A DNA stretch of 51,197 nucleotides. Origin: a virus (Duplodnaviria; Caudoviricetes). Positions 3,387-30,672 of this stretch are shown piece after piece (positions within the stretch are counted from its first letter, which is position 1; every line of letters begins with the position of its first letter). The stretch lies in the IMG/VR virus record IMGVR_UViG_3300005663_000062, positions 1 to 51,197 of that record. One strand, written 5' to 3'. A program made the position numbers and the translations under genes. Below the pieces are notes generated by a model. That model saw only the letters and a list, made by a program, of their open reading frames with translations. It had not been told where the DNA came from and did no database searches.

Positions 3387-4424
3387 TTAATTCTTTTCCT
3401 GTTGGGTTAACGGCGGTTGTCGAGTACCGGAAACATCAACTGCTATACCGACATAATTCTCTATTAACATCATCGAACCTGGGTCGATACTTGTAGCAGT
3501 CGCATTAGTAGCGATTGTGTTATAAGTAATCAATCCAGTAGCCGCTGCGGTGAACTCAATAGCATGCTGTCCTGCTGTCTTATTCCGAATTATATTTCGA
3601 GATATTACAGCATCTTCATCAACGGTATCAGACCATATCGCTGAAATCGCAAATTCGCCCTGTATATCGTTACCGACAATCTTCATATTATTATTAGCTC
3701 CATTACCAGCCTCGATAAAGTGATTCGGGCCGGTAGTTGAAGTATGCCGATAGATACAGTTGTAAATTCTGAAATCATTTGCTCCTGCCGCGAGGTCGAT
3801 AGCGTCAAGAAACGCATCTGTTATAAAGGCTGGCTCAGGCCATTCACAGGCAATGATAGTGCAATTGTCACCTGCCGCTTCTACGCTGATTCCCATTGTT
3901 ATCTCTGTGCCTGTAACGAAACGCAAGTTGTATATGACAATATTTGCAGCGCCTACGACGAATTCGCCTGCCAATGCCTCATAGGTAAAAGTAGGCATGT
4001 CAGTACCCTTGCCAATGCCAATAACAGTAATGCCTGCGGTAGTTAAATCAACTGCGTCGGCGGCGCTCAATGTCTCGCCATGGTTTTGAGCAAGCATGAT
4101 ATAATCGCCTCGATTGGCTCCGCCATCGGCAAGACTTAGAACGTCAGCCTCTTTGAGAGTTATAACAGCCCTTGAAAAAGACTTGCCATCGCCGCTTACT
4201 GACCTTCCAGAATTCACATACCATATCTTTCCGAGTCCAAGTTGTCCGCCGACTTCGACCGCAGCCTGTATTTCCTGTGCCCATATCGTCGCCCTGTCCT
4301 TTTGGGGATGGCCGCCCCATTGATAACCGTTGTTAAACGTCTGCCTGTCAGCGGCGTTGTAAGTCAGAGCATGTACAGGTACGCACATAGCCAAAATGAC
4401 TATGATAAATAGTAATCGTTTCAT
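3387..4424 (-). CDS. right-handed beta-helix (pectin-lyase-like) protein with N-terminal Sec signal peptide
   Basis: MKRLLFIIVILAMCVPVHA signal; WYVNSG..SGDGKSF..A..TL..A, GDYIMLA..H.E and repeating I.NC/N.I beta-helix turns. Confidence 0.75.
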   Translation of the reverse strand: MKRLLFIIVILAMCVPVHALTYNAADRQTFNNGYQWGGHPQKDRATIWAQEIQAAVEVGGQLGLGKIWYVNSGRSVSGDGKSFSRAVITLKEADVLSLADGGANRGDYIMLAQNHGETLSAADAVDLTTAGITVIGIGKGTDMPTFTYEALAGEFVVGAANIVIYNLRFVTGTEITMGISVEAAGDNCTIIACEWPEPAFITDAFLDAIDLAAGANDFRIYNCIYRHTSTTGPNHFIEAGNGANNNMKIVGNDIQGEFAISAIWSDTVDEDAVISRNIIRNKTAGQHAIEFTAAATGLITYNTIATNATATSIDPGSMMLIENYVGIAVDVSGTRQPPLTQQEKN

Positions 4425-5059
4425 TGTTTTACTCCTTTCTTGAGTAGTTGTAGTTTGTTTACGATATTCAGTAATCCAATATATTTTTCATGGTTGCATT
4501 TCACCAGAGGGTCACACCAGATGTCGTACCCGGCCTTGCGAGCCTTATCGCAGAAGTAAATGTCCTCACCCATTTCAATACCACCGGGAACGAAAACATT
4601 CTTCCAGTAAGGCCATTCCAGAGCTTCAAAGACTTCGTACTTGATAAGTGTTACACCAAACCCACCGGATACTATCTTAAATGGGTTTCGAGGCAGGTCG
4701 TCAAGTTCAATGAACAATTCATCCCTCGATACCGACCATCGTATCTCACCTTTTTGTGTCATTGGATAAACACCCATAACGATGTCTTTATCTAACTCTT
4801 TCAGTTTCTCTAAAGTGTTCTTCTTCGGTAAAACGTCAGCGTCGAGAAATAAGATGTGGGTAGGCTTGGGTATCCTGTACTTTGCGTGCTGAATTGCCAT
4901 ATCACGCCCGACTTCAGGCTTGGAAGAAACTGGATGATATATTTCAACCATCTCCTTAGTGTATTCCCAAAACGATAGAGTCTCTTTTAAGCGTGAATCA
5001 ATTTTATAATCCTGGCCAAGCGGAACGCTGACAAGAATGGGCCTATCCAAATAAATCAT
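4421..5059 (-). CDS. glycosyltransferase (GT-A fold, family 2-like)
   Basis: THILFLDAD (DxD), GFGVTLIKYEVF, GEDIYFCDKARKAGYDIWCD...C.H. Confidence 0.85.
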   Translation of the reverse strand: MIYLDRPILVSVPLGQDYKIDSRLKETLSFWEYTKEMVEIYHPVSSKPEVGRDMAIQHAKYRIPKPTHILFLDADVLPKKNTLEKLKELDKDIVMGVYPMTQKGEIRWSVSRDELFIELDDLPRNPFKIVSGGFGVTLIKYEVFEALEWPYWKNVFVPGGIEMGEDIYFCDKARKAGYDIWCDPLVKCNHEKYIGLLNIVNKLQLLKKGVKQ

Positions 5060-5068
5060 ATTATCTCC

Positions 5069-5521
5069 CTAAATATTAGACGTTGAAACCTGAGTATCGT
5101 AAGACGACTGCGGGCCGTGGTCTAACCACGCATTCAGTGCGCCTGTCACAGTTCCGGTTGCGACGACTGCTACTGCTAAAAATCGCCTGTCGTCAACATT
5201 TACAGGCAAAGGCACACGTAACAGCCATTCACCGACAGCTATAGACGCTCCTATCGTTCTCGCACCTGAAGACAGAACAATAAGACTGGAGCTATCCTGA
5301 CCTCCGGCGGCGGTGTCAGCTAAAAGCCGAATATCAATAGTCGTACCCGTAATAGCTGTAGTCCCGACTCGTACATTCAGCCAGAGAGGTTCGCCTGCAC
5401 CCATTTCAAGGTCAGCCGCCTGCCAATCTATAGTCTTTGCGGTACCACCGATTGTAGTACCGTTCGTAGTAGTGATTGTCAGGTCGTCCATAAATTCGTA
5501 CATTATATCATAAAGAGCCAT
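5069..5521 (-). CDS. capsid cement/decoration protein (BPP-1 Bbp16-like)
   Basis: Immediately after the major capsid gene; MGAGEPLWLNVRV, RRFLAV and G.LNAWL motifs; 150 aa. Confidence 0.7.
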   Translation of the reverse strand: MALYDIMYEFMDDLTITTTNGTTIGGTAKTIDWQAADLEMGAGEPLWLNVRVGTTAITGTTIDIRLLADTAAGGQDSSSLIVLSSGARTIGASIAVGEWLLRVPLPVNVDDRRFLAVAVVATGTVTGALNAWLDHGPQSSYDTQVSTSNI

Positions 5522-5535
5522 AAATGGCCTCCTTT

Positions 5536-6564
5536 CTAAGTTGTGACAATTGTTTCTGTCGTGTCGATTGCATCCAGTCGTCTCACCGGCATATCGTGGA
5601 ACATTAACTGCGGCTGTCCGAAGGGATTGTTCGGACCCCAGAAGACGTTGACTTTGTCTTTGGCGAGAATCATTAACTGTACGAAAATGGTCTCATTAAC
5701 GTACATGTAAATCGTTCCCGGAGTCCTGTAATTGTAGCGGGTCTCGATAATCTTATCCTCGTCAAGCGTAGCTGCGTCCGTGGTTGAGTTGGTCGAGATA
5801 TTCGCCAGTCTCTTAACAGTTCTCGTATCCTCGATAGCCAGCCCGATGTCCCATGAAAATTCGGTGATATGTGCCCACAACTGCTTGTTGTTAGGCTCGA
5901 AGGACGGGGTATTGGAAGAAGAATCGGACAAGGTGTAGACCAGTCCCATGTCTTCTTTTTTGATACCGCCGCCTGTAGCGTTACGGGGATAGATTAAGTA
6001 AACGCCACCCGCTCGCCACTGGATGAACCAGATAGACGTTAGGGATGCGCCTGTACCTGCCGTAGCACCGTTGTTAGCCACATAAGCCGACCTTGACGTA
6101 CTAAGAGTGTTGTACCTCGCCAAGAGGCCGTCAAACTCTTCAGGAGGCTCCGCTGTCTTATTTCCGGCGACCATAGTATTAGCGAACTCCTGACCCATAG
6201 CCTCGATGTGAGGACGTTCCTGCTGCTGACGGAACTTGGCGGGATTCGGCTGGAGTCTCATAACATCGTCAGGGCATTGATACCTCGCCTTTTGCTGAGC
6301 GATTGTCTCTCTGACCTGATTCAGACGGCCTGCGGTGGCGTTCCAGCCCTCGCCTATCTTCACCCATGAGGGCTTAGGAAGTGCGGTACGCCTTGAGACT
6401 ACGTGTGAGGTAATATCATTAGCACGCTGAACGACAGCGTCCTGAATGAGATCGTTGGTTTCGTTCAATACTTCCGCTACGTCGATGATCTCCTGATTAT
6501 GAGTCATCCTCGCAGCGAGAAGCATGTTTTCTCTTTGGTTAATATCACTACTTGAAATAGCCAT
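5536..6564 (-). CDS. major capsid protein (HK97 fold, BPP-1 Bbp17-like)
   Basis: 342 aa; EVLNETN.LI.D, R..LP...W, HIEAMGQ, EEFDGL..RY, TSIWFIQW, IYP, F.W.IGL.I.D.R.V.R.ANI and PVRR.DAI..TE; strong AAAGGAG RBS. Confidence 0.92.
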   Translation of the reverse strand: MAISSSDINQRENMLLAARMTHNQEIIDVAEVLNETNDLIQDAVVQRANDITSHVVSRRTALPKPSWVKIGEGWNATAGRLNQVRETIAQQKARYQCPDDVMRLQPNPAKFRQQQERPHIEAMGQEFANTMVAGNKTAEPPEEFDGLLARYNTLSTSRSAYVANNGATAGTGASLTSIWFIQWRAGGVYLIYPRNATGGGIKKEDMGLVYTLSDSSSNTPSFEPNNKQLWAHITEFSWDIGLAIEDTRTVKRLANISTNSTTDAATLDEDKIIETRYNYRTPGTIYMYVNETIFVQLMILAKDKVNVFWGPNNPFGQPQLMFHDMPVRRLDAIDTTETIVTT

Positions 6565-15123: not shown

Positions 15124-15777
15124 CTAACATTCCGCACTTATCATCATAGTATACGCAAAACAGTTCAATGACCTGCTCTTTGTTATGAATTCTTTTCCAA
15201 TCTTAGGAAATTTCACTACGTATCTTATTTCTTTAATCACAAAACCAGCCTTATTTAGCATATATTTAATAAGCCCTAACGAAATAAACGTATGATGCTT
15301 GCATTGGCCGTATCTTCTGTATATGAACTCTTGATAAGAATAACCAAATAATATCCTCAGACGATTTACCAAATTTAAATCATAAGGGACAGAACATAAT
15401 AACTGACCACCCTTAACTAACACTCTTTTGATTTCCTTCATTAAGAATATCGGATCGAAAACATGCTCGATAATATCACCGGCCCATACCACATTAAACG
15501 CACCGTCAGGATACGGAATACCGGTATCCAAGTCATGCACTTTGCAGTTGAGACCCTTCTGCTTCGCTAAACCAATGGCCACCGGAGAGAAGTCCAATCC
15601 TGTTAGTTCGTGGCCGTCATCCTGTAATCGCTTCATTATCTCGCCCGAACCACAACCAATATCCAGTATGCTACTCACAGATTCACCCAGGAAATTAAAG
15701 AGAGCTTCCTCGGCTTTCGATATTAAGCATCGCTTGCCGGTTCTGTATCCGTTGTTTTCACGTTCTACGGGTATCAT
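15124..15777 (-). CDS. class I SAM-dependent methyltransferase (Methyltransf_11/23 type, often in glycan loci)
   Basis: ILDIGCGSG, GLDFS, DLD..IPY.D..FNVV...DIIEHV.DP and RVL..GG.L..SVP. Confidence 0.88.
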   Translation of the reverse strand: MIPVERENNGYRTGKRCLISKAEEALFNFLGESVSSILDIGCGSGEIMKRLQDDGHELTGLDFSPVAIGLAKQKGLNCKVHDLDTGIPYPDGAFNVVWAGDIIEHVFDPIFLMKEIKRVLVKGGQLLCSVPYDLNLVNRLRILFGYSYQEFIYRRYGQCKHHTFISLGLIKYMLNKAGFVIKEIRYVVKFPKIGKEFITKSRSLNCFAYTMMISAEC

Positions 15778-24556: not shown

Positions 24557-25255
24557 TTACTCCTTTTCCATACATATTACATCTTCCCAGTCGATTTTCG
24601 GTGAGCCTTTGGCCTCGGCCAGTCTGCATTTAACTGTCCTTTTTCTGCCCGGATTTTTTGGCCTGTGGTCAACGTTAGATTTCAGTAGTGGCCTATGCGG
24701 GCAATAACCGTAAAAGCCAAGTGCTATGTTGCAATTCAAACACAAACAACGATATTTATCTTTTGGAAACCCCTGTTTTTTGATGTCTTGATATATCTTT
24801 CGGCCTTTACCGCATCTCGCTCTATGCTCAGCACCATCGCCGTTTATGTGGTCAATAGTCAAGAACTCAATATGCTTCTCTCCGCAACATTCACACTTAC
24901 TACCATAAGCAGACATCACTTCTTTTTTTAAGGCTTTATCCTTCTCTTTAAGTCTTTTGATAATATCTATCTTGTTTCGTTTGTAATAACTTAAAGCTTG
25001 CCCTCTGATTTTGTCAGCATTTTTCCGATAATGCAAAGCATCTTTATCTTTCTTCGTCCTCAATACACCATCTCCGCCATTGGCTAAAGATAAAACTTTG
25101 CGCCGCCCATGCCCCGCACAAAAGGTGCTGCAAAAATAATGGCCTGTCTTTGTGGTCTTTTTTCGGTTACTGGCATAATCTATTACGAGTACGCCACAAT
25201 GACCACATTTGAACTTTATTCTTTTGGCTTTTGTGTGCATATTACCATTTCCCAA
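24557..25255 (-). CDS. HNH endonuclease (homing-type), C-terminus fused to a copy of the methyltransferase tail
   Basis: YGSKCECCGE....FLTIDHING.G...LCLNCN; N-terminal C..CG...YFCS..C; ends RLAEAKGSPKIDWEDVIC. Confidence 0.85.
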   Translation of the reverse strand: MGNGNMHTKAKRIKFKCGHCGVLVIDYASNRKKTTKTGHYFCSTFCAGHGRRKVLSLANGGDGVLRTKKDKDALHYRKNADKIRGQALSYYKRNKIDIIKRLKEKDKALKKEVMSAYGSKCECCGEKHIEFLTIDHINGDGAEHRARCGKGRKIYQDIKKQGFPKDKYRCLCLNCNIALGFYGYCPHRPLLKSNVDHRPKNPGRKRTVKCRLAEAKGSPKIDWEDVICMEKE

Positions 25256-26370
25256 TTTATCGGTGGACTACCCTTGCTTTCAGCCAATCTTCTAAAAAAA
25301 CTGGCCCGTTTTGTTATTTTTACTATATCTCCACCAAATAAGGAATGCTTTTTTTCTATTTTTATTAACATTGCTTTATGTTTACAGACAGTCTTAAATC
25401 CTATGCTATGACATAACTTTTCCCAATCACCCTCAAAATCTACAATCTTTTTATTCCTTACGAAATTCTTAACAACCCAGATAGCATGACCTCCCGGCTT
25501 TAGTATCTTGTGGCACTGCTCAAGTATCTCTTTAGCGGCTTGCCAGAAGGTGGGGCCTTTAACTTCACCTAACTGGCCTTCTGTTTCACCGTAATGTTTT
25601 GACTTGCCCCCCGTTAAGTCTTTTCCAGATTGCCAATTAGATTCATTTCTTTGTACGCCCGATGCTATTACTGCGCTTCCTTCATACGGCGGGCTCGACA
25701 CCACTAAGTCCACGTCCCCGGCCTTGAGATTGCCGAGATTGCCTTTGGTCTGGCCATAACTTTGCTTGCGAGGCTTACTATCGTGTATCTGTTGGCGCTT
25801 TGCTGGCGTATCTCCAACAGCGCCAATATTTACATTATTCTCTATAAATGGTGGACTTGAGATGACCATATCCACCTTACCGGGCTTCATTGCGCCGAGT
25901 TGGCCGGGGGTCTGGCCGTAATCGTCCTTTTGAGTTTTGCTGAGTTTTTCAAATTCTATTTGTGCAGGTGGTTGCCTTACCGAGAACGGCGGACTCGAAA
26001 TAATAAGCTCTACTGATTCTTCCACTACTTCGCACAGTTTCCGGGAATCGCCCTGAATAATCACAGGATAAGGACAGCCGAACTCTTCAAAGCCCCTGCG
26101 GTGAAGCTCGAAGTTCTGCTTGGCTAATTCCACGAATTTCTGCTCAAGCTCTACGCATATCACCTGATAGCCGTCATAAGCCCCCAGAATGCCCGTAGAG
26201 CCGATTCCTCCGAACGGGTCAACTATTACACCGCCCCACCCCTCGTCCTTACAGTGGTCGAGGATACGCTTTAAGAGGCCATAACTCATCTTCGCCGGAT
26301 GCTGAAAACTTTCCGGTGCGATGTGGTCTTTCCAGCTATCGTTGTAGCAGTTTATCCAACTATTTTCCAT
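25216..26370 (-). CDS. DNA amino-methyltransferase (N4-C/N6-A) with triplicated motif IV
   Basis: HPAKM, motif I DPFGGIGST, QGDSR, SPPF/SPPF/SPPY, ILKPGG. Confidence 0.88.
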   Translation of the reverse strand: MENSWINCYNDSWKDHIAPESFQHPAKMSYGLLKRILDHCKDEGWGGVIVDPFGGIGSTGILGAYDGYQVICVELEQKFVELAKQNFELHRRGFEEFGCPYPVIIQGDSRKLCEVVEESVELIISSPPFSVRQPPAQIEFEKLSKTQKDDYGQTPGQLGAMKPGKVDMVISSPPFIENNVNIGAVGDTPAKRQQIHDSKPRKQSYGQTKGNLGNLKAGDVDLVVSSPPYEGSAVIASGVQRNESNWQSGKDLTGGKSKHYGETEGQLGEVKGPTFWQAAKEILEQCHKILKPGGHAIWVVKNFVRNKKIVDFEGDWEKLCHSIGFKTVCKHKAMLIKIEKKHSLFGGDIVKITKRASFFRRLAESKGSPPINWEMVICTQKPKE

Positions 26371-26484: not shown

Positions 26485-26703
26485 TCATTTCTCCTTACGC
26501 CAATACTTGTTTGCACATTTTTGGTAACGAAATAACTTATCAGCTATCACCCAGTACAGCATGTCCTTCTCAGGCCACCACCCGCAGCCACAGGCACACG
26601 CTACGTCTTCGATAGGCTTGCACTGCTCTTGCTCCCGTTTGGCAGCCTTAGCGAGCTTGCGGGCACGTTCACGGTCTTGGATGGAGGTGTGTTTCTTCGC
26701 CAT
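26485..26703 (-). CDS. hypothetical protein (CACGCG)
   Basis: TAATG coupling to the YopX gene. Confidence 0.55.
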   Translation of the reverse strand: MAKKHTSIQDRERARKLAKAAKREQEQCKPIEDVACACGCGWWPEKDMLYWVIADKLFRYQKCANKYWRKEK

Positions 26704-27095
26704 TAGGATTCCTCATGTATGTGGCCGGTGACTTCAAGACTATACCATTCATACCAGATATTATCTGTGCTATCATCTGGCATATCTTCGACTTTTGTAT
26801 CTAAACGTCTTTGTGAAAAACAGCCTCCGTAGTAAACAACTTCAAAATCAACAGGATGGTCAAGGTGTTTGTGCGTATATCTTACTTTATCCCCCTCGTA
26901 AATCTCCACGCCGTTCTTGTCTTTGAGGCCGGTGTATTGTTCGAGGATAACATTGTATCCGTGTTCTTCTTTGCAGTCCTCGATGTCCTGAAGAAATTCC
27001 AATAGCGTCCTATCTTCTTGCATACTGTGCTTTTGTCCGGGCAATGTTTTGTTTTTGCCGTCCGTAAACCACGCTCTAACTTTTATCTCTCTCAT
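26703..27095 (-). CDS. YopX family protein
   Basis: MREIKVRAW...QYTGLKDKNGVEIYEGD...EVTGHIHE. Confidence 0.88.
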   Translation of the reverse strand: MREIKVRAWFTDGKNKTLPGQKHSMQEDRTLLEFLQDIEDCKEEHGYNVILEQYTGLKDKNGVEIYEGDKVRYTHKHLDHPVDFEVVYYGGCFSQRRLDTKVEDMPDDSTDNIWYEWYSLEVTGHIHEES

Positions 27096-27508
27096 TTCTT
27101 TGCCCTCAATTCGTTATACATAGATTTATACATGAGTCCGATACCGATTATCTTGCCGTGATAAGACTGGTTTTTGTCTAAAAATACCAATTTGTCATAT
27201 ACATCCTGCCCATATTTTTCTATTACAAATTCTTTGTAAACAGCTTCTTTGCCCTGATGAAAGCCGTTACAGTCCTTACATTGAGCATGAATATTCCGCT
27301 CATCAAAATAAACGCCACTTAAACCACCCCGGCCTTTGGGAATACAATGGCCTGCATCGCAATTCTTGTTATAGATAATTATTCTTGGACAGGTACAGCA
27401 CTTCACGTATCCAAAAGGCGTTTCTGGATATTGATTTTGATATTCTATCGCGTCCCTGAGCCGGATATACTTACTGCACCACTTCCATGCGGTTTTCTTA
27501 GCTGTCAT
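27092..27508 (-). CDS. ninG: NinG/Rap-like recombination endonuclease
   Basis: SKYIRLRD...CCTC...DAGH...FDERNIHAQCKDCN. Confidence 0.85.
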   Translation of the reverse strand: MTAKKTAWKWCSKYIRLRDAIEYQNQYPETPFGYVKCCTCPRIIIYNKNCDAGHCIPKGRGGLSGVYFDERNIHAQCKDCNGFHQGKEAVYKEFVIEKYGQDVYDKLVFLDKNQSYHGKIIGIGLMYKSMYNELRAKK

Positions 27509-29834: not shown

Positions 29835-30256
29835 GGCTTCTCCTTGATGAGTTCGAGTTGAAGATAGCGAACGGCTAAACTGTTCAGTGGATATTTCAAT
29901 CCTCGTTTGCTTCTTTTCTTGATATAGTAACCCCCGTCATGGAATACGACGGTAGTCGTACCGTACATTCTTCTGAGCGTAGAGTTTTTACTTGGCGGTC
30001 TGCCGTTCAATGTCCTGTCCCCTATTTTTCTTGTCGATTGCAGGGTATCCCCCGCGAACACCTTATCGCCGTTCTTGTCGTCACAAACGTAGGGCAGGAT
30101 AGATAACTCCGTTATTTTGCAATTACATAAAAGTGGCGTAAATTCATTGTTACCATGCCAAGCCTCAAATGGATATTTTTGATAGAGAGGCTTTGCACCG
30201 TCGAATTTCATATACCCAACCGTCTTGCCGTCTTTCTTAAGTTTGAACAGGTTCAT
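29831..30256 (-). CDS. YopX-like protein (divergent)
   Basis: YVCDDKNGDKVFAGD and V.FHDGGY. Confidence 0.55.
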   Translation of the reverse strand: MNLFKLKKDGKTVGYMKFDGAKPLYQKYPFEAWHGNNEFTPLLCNCKITELSILPYVCDDKNGDKVFAGDTLQSTRKIGDRTLNGRPPSKNSTLRRMYGTTTVVFHDGGYYIKKRSKRGLKYPLNSLAVRYLQLELIKEKP

Positions 30257-30672
30257 TCCTTCTTTCCTTTGAGTAGTTCCGGGTTTTGATGGGCGTTGCC
30301 GATGATTTCAAAATCTATATAGTCATAAGTCGCAAGGGGGTATGAAGTCCGTCCATCGTCCCATTCAAAATAGACTCTCAGTTTTTTATCATCCCACTTG
30401 ACAATCCCTATATGTCCATTGTCGTCTTTGACCTTATCGCTAAAATAGCATTCTGTGTGCTTCTTATCCTTGAGGCCGACTTGCTGGCCTACTGTGCTTG
30501 GCTGGACTTCGATGAAATCTGTCTTGAGAAATAATATGTTTTTAGCGTTAATATCATCAGGTGAGGTAACAAACGGCACTATATAATGTTTATCTACAAC
30601 TTTAACATACCACCCATACACGAACTTCTTGCCGTCTATGGGGATGGCGCGGTAGGGTCTTGGATTGGTCAT
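30253..30672 (-). CDS. YopX family protein
   Basis: YRA.....FVYG...EV.P.TVGQ..GLKDK...EIIGNAHQNPELL. Confidence 0.82.
   Translation of the reverse strand: MTNPRPYRAIPIDGKKFVYGWYVKVVDKHYIVPFVTSPDDINAKNILFLKTDFIEVQPSTVGQQVGLKDKKHTECYFSDKVKDDNGHIGIVKWDDKKLRVYFEWDDGRTSYPLATYDYIDFEIIGNAHQNPELLKGKKE

Follow-up and report, generated by a model that had tools for sequence, protein, structure and literature searches.

The viral DNA analysed here (Duplodnaviria; Caudoviricetes) is IMG/VR record IMGVR_UViG_3300005663_000062, positions 1 to 51,197, and this whole stretch of 51,197 nucleotides is called the window. It carries a gene whose product, the protein P0001, is a phage amino-methyltransferase that depends on S-adenosylmethionine (SAM) and whose catalytic core is split in two halves by three modules in tandem (Table 1). 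Each module, or unit, has the same general form: a hydrophobic strand, the catalytic motif SPP[F/Y] (motif IV), a variable loop of 21-30 amino acids (aa) and a stretch of the type YGxTxG(Q/N)LG. The reading that we favour, without going so far as to call it probable, is that P0001 is multispecific, with cassettes that alternate in the only beta-4/active-site slot, and that it probably acts on N4-cytosine. What is new here is the existence of loop families under purifying selection, of loops that shift position within the array, and of near-identical cores that carry different loops and different numbers of units.

One catalytic core and three copies of motif IV

The textbook amino-methyltransferase is a single-site enzyme in which motif I and motif IV each occur once. 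P0001 combines a sole motif I (DPFGGIGST, residues 51-59) with three copies of motif IV, which start at residues 126 (SPPF), 172 (SPPF) and 226 (SPPY) and are followed by the stretches YGQTPGQLG (residue 151), YGQTKGNLG (residue 205) and YGETEGQLG (residue 260). Both motifs that characterize exocyclic amino-methyltransferases are therefore present, these motifs being given in an excerpt of PMC7544214 as a FxGxG-type SAM loop (motif I) and (D/N/S)-P-P-(Y/F/W) (motif IV). A six-frame scan of all 51,197 bases found strand-plus-SPP units at these three places only. Viewed as copies of one segment intended for one place in the fold, the array offers three strand-plus-motif copies to one motif I and one core.

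The first-pass annotation of this DNA had described three tandem copies of motif IV with different loops between 25557 and 26010, together with one motif I and one downstream core. The three segments that it quoted (VELIISSPPF, VDMVISSPPF and VDLVVSSPPY) are all present, and the single motif I and single core are borne out by the translation, the Pfam match and the AlphaFold2 (AF2) model; the mapped coordinates of the units show that its span was right to within about 10-15 bases. In our alignment of homologs (A1), residues D51, F53 and G55 of motif I are invariant. The SPP columns of A1 are also invariant, but only by construction since its members were picked for having three motifs, and these columns were not counted as evidence.

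A circularly permuted class beta core

P0001 passes the Pfam model PF01555 (N6_N4_Mtase) with 64.5 bits against a cut-off of 26.7 (E value 1.8e-17, two stretches), and its residues 3-85 align with profile positions 142-221 of 221, which is the end of the profile. Among solved chains, the best match is TTHA0409 of Thermus thermophilus (2zie, E value 2.8e-09), which aligns in three pieces and in permuted order: residues 9-94 of the query with residues 201-284 of the chain (HPA...DPF.G.G), residues 106-129 with 26-50 (strand and SPPY), and residues 258-326 with 54-129 (Y..TPGQLG, helix and beta-5). CcrM (6pbd) and M.PvuII (1boo) also match, with E values of 2e-4 and 0.018. Since the N-terminal half matches the end of PF01555 and 2zie aligns in permuted order, the core is a circularly permuted class beta enzyme in which motif I comes before motif IV. 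The arrangement of class beta is itself not found, motif I (residue 51) lying ahead of every copy of motif IV (126-229), and the relationship is one of descent. The order I then IV matches that of class gamma, but the class gamma model PF02384 reaches only 14.8 bits for a cut-off of 20.4. No NCBIfam model reaches its cut-off for P0001 (PrmC/HemK matches are weak and far below it), and the family is without a curated model.

P0001 shares with class beta N4/N6 enzymes (PF01555; 2zie, CcrM, M.PvuII) the SAM half with its HPAK...DPFGGxGT signature, the hydrophobic strand that bears the S-P-P-aromatic motif, and the Y..T.GQLG stretch with a helix and beta-5 after it. It differs from them, besides the permuted order of the motifs, in that the block of strand, motif IV and YG stretch is present three times (one to 11 times in the family) instead of once. 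Furthermore, its loops of 21-30 aa stand where 2zie, in which motif IV ends at chain residue 50 and the YG stretch begins at residue 54, has a gap of 3-4 residues. P0001 also has no large separate target recognition domain; a sizeable C-terminal domain of this kind is absent, and there is only a stretch of about 35 aa between the last strands.

The methylated base would probably be N4-cytosine, because the motif is almost always SPP[YFW]. The serine-first form of motif IV is found in all three units of P0001 and in 667 of the 669 motifs of the best 150 representatives of the family, although the form of the motif is not fully diagnostic. SPPY is described, in an excerpt of PMC8885841, as the mark of most bacterial N4-cytosine enzymes.

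A large family with a variable number of units

The family is large, mostly viral and variable in unit number. A word-indexed search returned 2063 relatives at E<=1e-3, and an exhaustive search of 1.84 billion representatives (clusters at 50% identity) returned 3008 at E<=1e-3, 2153 at E<=1e-10 and 1248 at E<=1e-30. The nearest clusters in the ESM Atlas are 76-93% viral. A search of 185,579 species (one genome each) gave about seven metagenome-assembled contigs that match beyond the motif I part, the other hits being limited to that part; five of these contigs span most of the query and two match at the C-terminal side only (L062, residues 214-381; L065, residues 319-381). The phage GenBank collection gave no match by tblastn, and exact 27-base scans of viral and metagenome contigs gave no near-identical relative.

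Our set of proteins P0001-P0121 includes, besides 119 homologs, the protein of the window and P0002, which falls in the same cluster and is 99% identical to it. At least two [SDNT]PP[YFWH] motifs are found in 120 of these 121 proteins: one protein has a single motif, 17 have two, 67 three, 20 four, seven five, seven six and two seven. In the best 150 representatives, a ranking that is biased toward long arrays, the number of units ranges from one to 11 (one unit in 1 representative, two in 13, three in 34, four in 37, five in 34, six in 13, seven in 6, eight in 9, and nine, ten and eleven in 1 each), and the motif has the form SPP[YFWH] in 667 of 669 cases. At least two units are likewise present in 50 of the 54 IMG/VR genes and in 38 of the 42 complete genes from the metagenome scan. 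The median spacing from one motif to the next is 58 aa (282 spacings). The first-pass annotation had treated a lack of unit variation among homologs as grounds for giving up its interpretation; alignment and unit counts reveal ample variation.

The longest arrays are those of P0140 (832 aa, 11 units) and P0127 (724 aa, nine units). In P0127, all nine strands end in TSPP and most read V[DA]AIVTSPP (the exceptions being IGGIITSPP and VDGIVTSPP), and the loops are unrelated to one another; the flanks are thus strikingly alike within this protein. At the other extreme, two permuted relatives with a single unit are candidates for the ancestral one-cassette state. One of them (locus L035, 4001-4819) has one SSPPY followed by a long loop of about 30 aa. 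In the other (locus L031, 4001-5131), FPPF replaces SPPx and an insertion of about 140 aa precedes the sole YG stretch. A Campylobacter locus (L075) considered as a further single-unit permuted relative was rejected, as it encodes an ordinary class beta enzyme.

Loops behave as exchanged cassettes

Clustering at 45% identity or more grouped the 397 loops of 120 proteins into 80 multi-member families (275 loops) and left 122 singletons. Pairs at or above this threshold amount to 651 of 78,606 for the real loops and to none after shuffling of each loop. Members of the same family do not keep to one place in the array: among same-family pairs from different proteins, the ordinal position differs in 370 and is the same in 262. 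For instance, loop 1 of the window is common to P0004 and P0008, with 90-95% identity for cores that are 72-76% identical, and loop 3 is common to P0020, with 93% identity for cores at 68%. The family of loop 2 occurs as unit 1 in P0038, P0043, P0048 and L023 and as unit 2 in P0012, P0118 and L005.

Recombination at the conserved flanks moves loops from one gene to another and from one position to another. Proteins with near-identical cores carry different arrays: P0003 and P0005 have cores that are 98% identical and four versus three units, P0028 and P0039 have cores that are 97% identical and three versus two units, and P0095 and P0113 have 100% identical cores and differ by their last loop alone. 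In the pairwise alignments of proteins with near-identical cores, identity ends directly after SSPP and returns at the next YG stretch. In its 90% cluster, P0001 has a single companion, P0002, which is encoded by a contig of 51,324 bases and also has three units. Over 384 aa, the two proteins differ at five residues (R132G, Q133H, P134A, A136V and I138K), all within loop 1; the changes are confined to residues 132-138 (about 25957-25977 in the window) and form a local patch in one cassette. An all-against-all megablast of the loci found no near-identical DNA pair with different arrays, and recent exchanges are therefore documented at the protein level only. The sole mosaic pair (L128/L130) has core segments at 93-94% identity, with 1203 versus 819 unaligned bases between them.

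The loop families are discrete and under purifying selection. Same-family loops from the window and the 54 viral loci for which DNA was available have proportions of synonymous differences (pS) of 0.46-1.2, mostly 0.6-0.95 and 0.77 when pooled, and proportions of nonsynonymous differences (pN) of 0.11-0.39, for a pooled pN/pS of 0.35; for loop 2 of the window and the loop of L005, pS is 0.76 and pN 0.15. Although the pairs were picked by amino-acid similarity, likeness that outlasts the saturation of synonymous sites implies a constraint on the loops. Moreover, the sets of loops are not redundant: no loop family occurs twice in one protein, for an expectation of 4.3 +/- 2.0, and only 1.3% of 5000 shuffles reach zero. 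The aromatic residue of motif IV tracks its loop, being that of the family majority in 195 of 203 units against 141 +/- 3.4 when permuted within position class. G, S, T, K and R are over-represented in the loops, V, I, L and F are under-represented, and the loops are slightly basic; such a composition suits looping-out. What these data describe is a set of tandem, exchangeable recognition modules on one catalytic core.

All unit positions are conserved

A profile of the strand block recovered 714 units in 303 distinct proteins, and SPP[YFWH] is kept in 694 of them (97%). In the window, the S-S-P-P codons differ synonymously between units and the strand blocks are alike at 21-28 of 45 bases. 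More generally, synonymous differences at identical residues reach 0.94 per site in 74 pairs of flanks from within the same gene, so that the conservation of the flanks is due to selection at the protein level and not to gene conversion. Twelve point-degenerate units were found, of which two are first, six middle and four last units, and at least two intact units remain in all 12 proteins. Both degenerate first units read SSLPF, and the cores of the two proteins are only 58% identical. Every unit position is thus conserved and each can occasionally be dispensed with, none being indispensable. Strands other than the first are more alike within one protein (0.463) than between proteins (0.358; permutation maximum 0.371), which fits an adaptation to one shared slot.

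Cassettes may take turns in a single slot

Alternative strand insertion and multispecificity, which the first-pass annotation had put forward together with an anti-restriction role, are plausible and fit the data best. Our interpretation would account for these observations as follows. Each module would be a working cassette for both catalysis and recognition. With a single slot beside a single SAM site, the cassettes would occupy this slot one at a time, either by exchange within the molecule or because each molecule folds into one of n frames, and the cassettes not in use would be extruded on their long hydrophilic loops. A single gene would in this way give rise to n forms of the enzyme that differ in the loop lying beside the flipped base. 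Such a multispecific DNA methyltransferase would shield the phage genome from several restriction systems, and its set of specificities would evolve through cassette shuffling. The sharing of one slot in turn would explain why inner units show a conservation of catalytic type and why a broken unit is tolerated anywhere in the array. It would also explain the long loops (3-4 residues in canonical enzymes), the non-redundant loop sets and the indecision of the structure predictions.

We also considered a more specific form of this interpretation, which seems possible to us but is held with less confidence. It is a case of alternate-frame folding, in which stochastic or DNA-guided folding would give as many isoforms as there are cassettes (2-11), each with its own target. 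Co-infecting phages would trade cassettes at the SSPP and YG flanks and so reshuffle the repertoire, and HNH homing genes inserted in or next to these flanks may help.

AF2 models bear on the use of the units. For P0001 (48 three-unit homologs aligned), both halves of the core are confident, with a predicted local distance difference test (pLDDT) of 75-96 for residues 3-85 and of 65-94 for the C-terminal half, whose helix and strands are as expected. Residues 116-273, which make up the whole array, are below 50, and this model therefore cannot tell which unit is used. In the model of P0100, a two-unit homolog (22 two-unit sequences), the first strand (E122-127) and SPPY128 are placed with a pLDDT of about 91 (block 121-130), and the last YG stretch and the next helix are placed too; residues 133-215, namely loop 1, the first YG stretch, strand 2, the second motif (SPPF), and loop 2, are below 50.

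Several points weigh against cassettes that take turns. No structure prediction puts a middle or last unit in the slot, and the outer frame of the P0100 model (first strand and last YG stretch) is the main support of a static alternative. Exchange of a central beta-strand is costly, and we know of no natural enzyme for which it has been demonstrated. The loop families and the pN/pS pairs were chosen by similarity, which inflates identity within families, and the association between aromatic residue and loop could be mere linkage, given that the codon of this residue directly borders the loop. All 12 degenerate units are known from single metagenome sequences, among which there may be errors or dead genes. 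The similarity of strands within a protein could partly reflect a bias in amino-acid composition. Finally, multispecificity, a DNA substrate and N4-cytosine as the methylated base are all properties that we infer for this family.

The static alternative, which we regard as unlikely, holds that the active site consists solely of the first strand, its SPPx and the last YGxTxGQLG and that all that lies between is a flexible composite appendage for DNA binding or target reading; shuffling would then tune a single specificity or affinity. It agrees with the P0100 model, which places exactly these two elements, with the alignment of 2zie ahead of the motif of unit 1 and from the YG stretch of unit 3 onward, and with loops that are hydrophilic and slightly basic. 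However, it leaves unexplained that S-P-P-aromatic is retained in 694 of 714 units, with the Y/F/W spectrum of catalytic motifs, despite saturated synonymous change, and that inner and last strands are fully hydrophobic. Broken first units (SSLPF) persist in two proteins with cores only 58% identical, arrays of 9-11 units would amount to insertions of more than 450 residues beside the active site, and AF2 gives the conserved inner blocks no confident place.

Alternatively, extra strands could fill the beta-4 slot of a partner, giving domain-swapped dimers or chains on DNA in which the number of units would set the valency. Several equivalent strands per chain would permit such swapping, and AF2 leaves the slot of P0001 unfilled. 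According to an excerpt of PMC7544214, the class beta enzymes of known structure form homodimers, and these include the closest, TTHA0409 (2zie). Since each chain has one slot, strands beyond one could nevertheless not all be used, and the discrete and conserved loops, shuffled but never duplicated within a protein, would have no explanation; we consider this exchange between subunits improbable.

There is also a low probability that the substrate is not DNA, the enzyme being an RNA or protein amino-methyltransferase whose cassettes read different substrates, a question that is largely independent of that of the architecture. The class I methyltransferase fold is confirmed by the P0100 model, for which the top structural matches and nearest folds with the same motif order are tRNA guanine-N2 enzymes: Trm14 (Z 19.5, root-mean-square deviation 2.2, 174 residues aligned), TrmN (Z 19.4) and aTrm11 (Z 18.9), with deviations of 2.0-2.5 over 171-174 residues for the three. 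Weak Pfam matches below cut-off to PF01170 (21.8 bits for 22.3) and PF03602, and those to PrmC/HemK mentioned above, go in the same direction. However, these structural matches are only 1-2 Z units above generic class I methyltransferases (Z 15-17.5) and are biased by the motif order. Foldseek searches of the PDB with the P0001 model gave generic class I methyltransferases only (E values of about 1e-5, template modelling scores of 0.3-0.4), and the list obtained with the P0100 model was of a similar kind. Moreover, the sole family model that P0001 passes is that of DNA methylases (PF01555), the solved chains that match best in sequence are those of DNA methylases (2zie, 2.8e-09; CcrM, 2e-4), the neighbouring genes (NinG, YopX, HNH) belong to phage DNA metabolism, and the family is 76-93% viral.

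Diversification between genomes rather than switching within one

The first-pass annotation had suggested that recombination or copy-number change between repeats could switch the specificity. As a mode of diversification this holds on the evolutionary scale, with one to 11 units and cassette exchange, but finds no support within one genome. Repeat finders detect at best 13 nucleotides at 92% identity between units, the repeat being visible at the protein level only, and the sole tandem DNA repeat of the gene is two copies of 9 bases. Because the units share no DNA repeats, rapid switching within a genome is not supported. The long near-identical repeats or simple-sequence tracts that characterize phase-variable genes are absent from the gene. 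Within the window, there is no second copy of the array DNA and no silent donor cassette, the best other match being 23 nucleotides at 91% (E value 0.018). No reverse-transcriptase family was found among the 41 window proteins scanned against PHROGs, and the gene does not qualify as the target of a diversity-generating retroelement.

Read-level data consist of Logan contigs from four runs, in which rare variants are invisible. None of these contigs cleanly joins two units: the joints skip the variable loops (25559>25676, 25759>25865 and 25890>25985; intervening sequence not known), have 85% likeness with sides of 24-62 bases, probably derive from co-occurring relatives and were not used as evidence. 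In all three runs that contain the gene, contigs are long on either side of 25723-26272, but within the array they are reduced to fragments of 138-276 bases. Further contigs, from relatives, match at the conserved flanks and not in the loops. This break-up is consistent with several array variants in the same samples, of which contigs are no proof.

A fast genetic switch, in which recombination between repeats deletes or duplicates units during the growth of one phage lineage as in phase variation, is thus very improbable: close relatives do differ in unit number (P0003 and P0005) and contigs from the source samples break up inside the array, but no match between units exceeds 13 bases at 92% (21-28 of 45 bases are alike in the best-conserved block), the only tandem DNA repeat is the 9-base one, recent duplications are not seen since no loop family recurs within a protein, and the 99%-identical sister P0002 keeps the same three units.

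HNH genes in and beside the array

Two kinds of association with HNH genes were found. In the window, the methyltransferase gene is followed by an HNH open reading frame (ORF) that has no Pfam hit at E<=0.001 and that ends with a second copy of the methyltransferase 3' end (Table 1). The peptide encoded by this copy, RLAEAKGSPKIDWEDVICMEKE, equals the C-termini of the homologs P0005, P0007 and P0013. This arrangement of an HNH gene and a second 3' end is unique among the 117 loci and the window. This looks like the outcome of an insertion of a mobile HNH cassette into the 3' end of the gene: the cassette would have supplied a substitute 3' end, and the old one would have become fused to the HNH ORF. 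Contigs of relatives from the same runs seem to join position 24625 to about 25481, a weak hint in which the intervening stretch is not known.

Furthermore, several homologs (L055, P0054, P0056, P0062, P0093, P0111 and L039) have a hydrophilic insertion of 170-220 aa in the strand just ahead of SSPPY. In L055, the insertion corresponds to a nested ORF of 211 aa in another frame (4317-4952, plus strand, within 3911-5614), which matches HTH_23 (E value 2e-10) and weakly HNH_3 (E value 0.0012); the methyltransferase frame is open throughout. The conserved peptide SLPHEHN.KEVV of the methyltransferase frame arises from out-of-frame reading of the region that encodes NPCHMSITKKKWW in the HNH gene. 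Since the insertions are nested HNH genes with the methyltransferase frame left open, homing-endonuclease genes target the conserved SSPP-coding flanks and are tolerated by the array. An intein as the source of these insertions was rejected, as intein ends are lacking and the nested HNH gene is in another frame. Rfam searches of the window, L055 and L039 found nothing, and the RNA fold z-score is -1.35.

Table 1. Coordinates of the methyltransferase gene, its parts and the adjoining HNH gene in the window (residue numbers are those of P0001)
Feature	Position	Strand	Basis
Methyltransferase gene (protein P0001), 384 codons and stop	25216..26370	-	ORF list and translation; PF01555
N-terminal core half, residues 3-85: HPAK region and SAM-binding motif I	26116..26364	-	PF01555, 2zie, AF2
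Motif I DPFGGIGST, residues 51-59, sole copy in protein	26194..26220	-	translation
Unit 1, residues 116-159: strand VELII, SSPPF (SPPF at 25984-25995), 21-aa loop SVRQPPAQIEFEKLSKTQKDD, YGQTPGQLG	25894..26025	-	
Unit 2, residues 160-213: linker AMKPGK, strand VDMVI, SSPPF (25846-25857), 29-aa loop IENNVNIGAVGDTPAKRQQIHDSKPRKQS, YGQTKGNLG	25732..25893	-	
Unit 3, residues 214-268: linker NLKAGD, strand VDLVV, SSPPY (25684-25695), 30-aa loop EGSAVIASGVQRNESNWQSGKDLTGGKSKH, YGETEGQLG	25567..25731	-	
C-terminal core half, residues 269-384: helix after motif IV, beta-5 to beta-7, conserved RKSFFRRL...GSP.I..E tail	25219..25566	-	
HNH endonuclease gene, 232 aa, neighbour with 40-base overlap with the methyltransferase stop	24557..25255	-	PHROG 2255, E value 4.6e-08
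Duplicate 3' end of the methyltransferase gene, RLAEAKGSPKIDWEDVICMEKE, which now terminates the HNH ORF	24557..24625	-	76% mean column identity when aligned as DNA to the genuine 3' end

Genomic context

The window is a piece of a podovirus-like phage genome in which almost all long ORFs are on the minus strand and which codes for portal/adaptor, major head, tail tubular and internal virion proteins. Public runs that contain it are labelled as marine sediment metagenome. Close to the methyltransferase gene are a NinG/Rap-like gene (27092-27508, minus strand) and two YopX-type genes (PHROG 98) at 26703-27095 and 30253-30672 (minus strand), the former with a Pfam YopX match at an E value of 8.3e-15; as a group, these genes are the sign of an early DNA-metabolism module. 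A second and unrelated SAM methyltransferase gene (15124-15777, minus strand, 217 aa) matches Methyltransf_11 (E value 1.1e-18) and Methyltransf_23 (E value 5.4e-18), which are families of small-molecule or RNA type, and its product has no DNA methylase motifs.

Comparison with known systems and significance

Multispecific cytosine-C5 methyltransferases, the closest analogues in function, are known from the Bacillus phages SPR, phi3T, rho11s and H2, in which one core carries tandem, exchangeable target-reading modules. In these enzymes, the modules lie in a variable region and share one common catalytic motif. PMC7544214 cites Trautner (1996) and Walter (1992) as its references 86-87 on these enzymes. 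P0001 resembles these enzymes by its single phage catalytic core, its short tandem exchangeable modules and its presumed use, self-protection against several restriction systems. It differs from them in chemistry (exocyclic amino group instead of C5) and in the region of the fold that is concerned. Unlike theirs, each module of P0001 carries its own catalytic strand and motif IV, and the modules must therefore compete for one structural slot. Moreover, multispecificity is proven for the Bacillus phage enzymes, whereas we only infer it for the family of P0001.

Recombination in the specificity subunits of Type I restriction-modification systems also swaps recognition modules between conserved flanks, a likeness with the modules described here. 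In those systems, however, a module is an entire folded domain, and the separate specificity subunit carries two of them, which work simultaneously; the modules of P0001 are short loops within the catalytic domain itself, with copies of the catalytic motif on either side. Trm14, TrmN and Trm11 (PF01170), the nearest solved structures, have the motif order I then IV in common with P0001, and their xPPY-type motif is on beta-4; they have a single motif IV, and P0001 is without THUMP or any other RNA-binding domain.

The arrangement that we propose for the strands of P0001 is like that of engineered alternate-frame-folding proteins (GFP and calcium-switch constructs), the closest analogues in structure, in which, as described in an excerpt of PMC12344692, a duplicated segment competes for one place in the fold and the loser is disordered. 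These constructs are laboratory-made and contain one duplicated segment; the family of P0001 is natural, with up to 11 segments that each carry a different loop, and in its case the exchange is only proposed. Tandem arrays of motif IV are not described in the full-text literature that we searched, which did not extend to REBASE or subscription journals, so that their absence from print is not established.

Should the static alternative be true, these proteins would have an unusual, hypervariable and modular insertion at the catalytic loop, and their conserved pseudo-catalytic blocks would need an explanation. If, as we favour, cassettes take turns, the family would represent the first natural alternate-frame folding used for a function and a second, independent invention of multispecific phage methyltransferases. 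It would also provide a natural scaffold in which a loop of 20-45 aa sets the target specificity, which may be of use for the engineering of methyltransferases and for reading the arms races between phages and their hosts from metagenomes.

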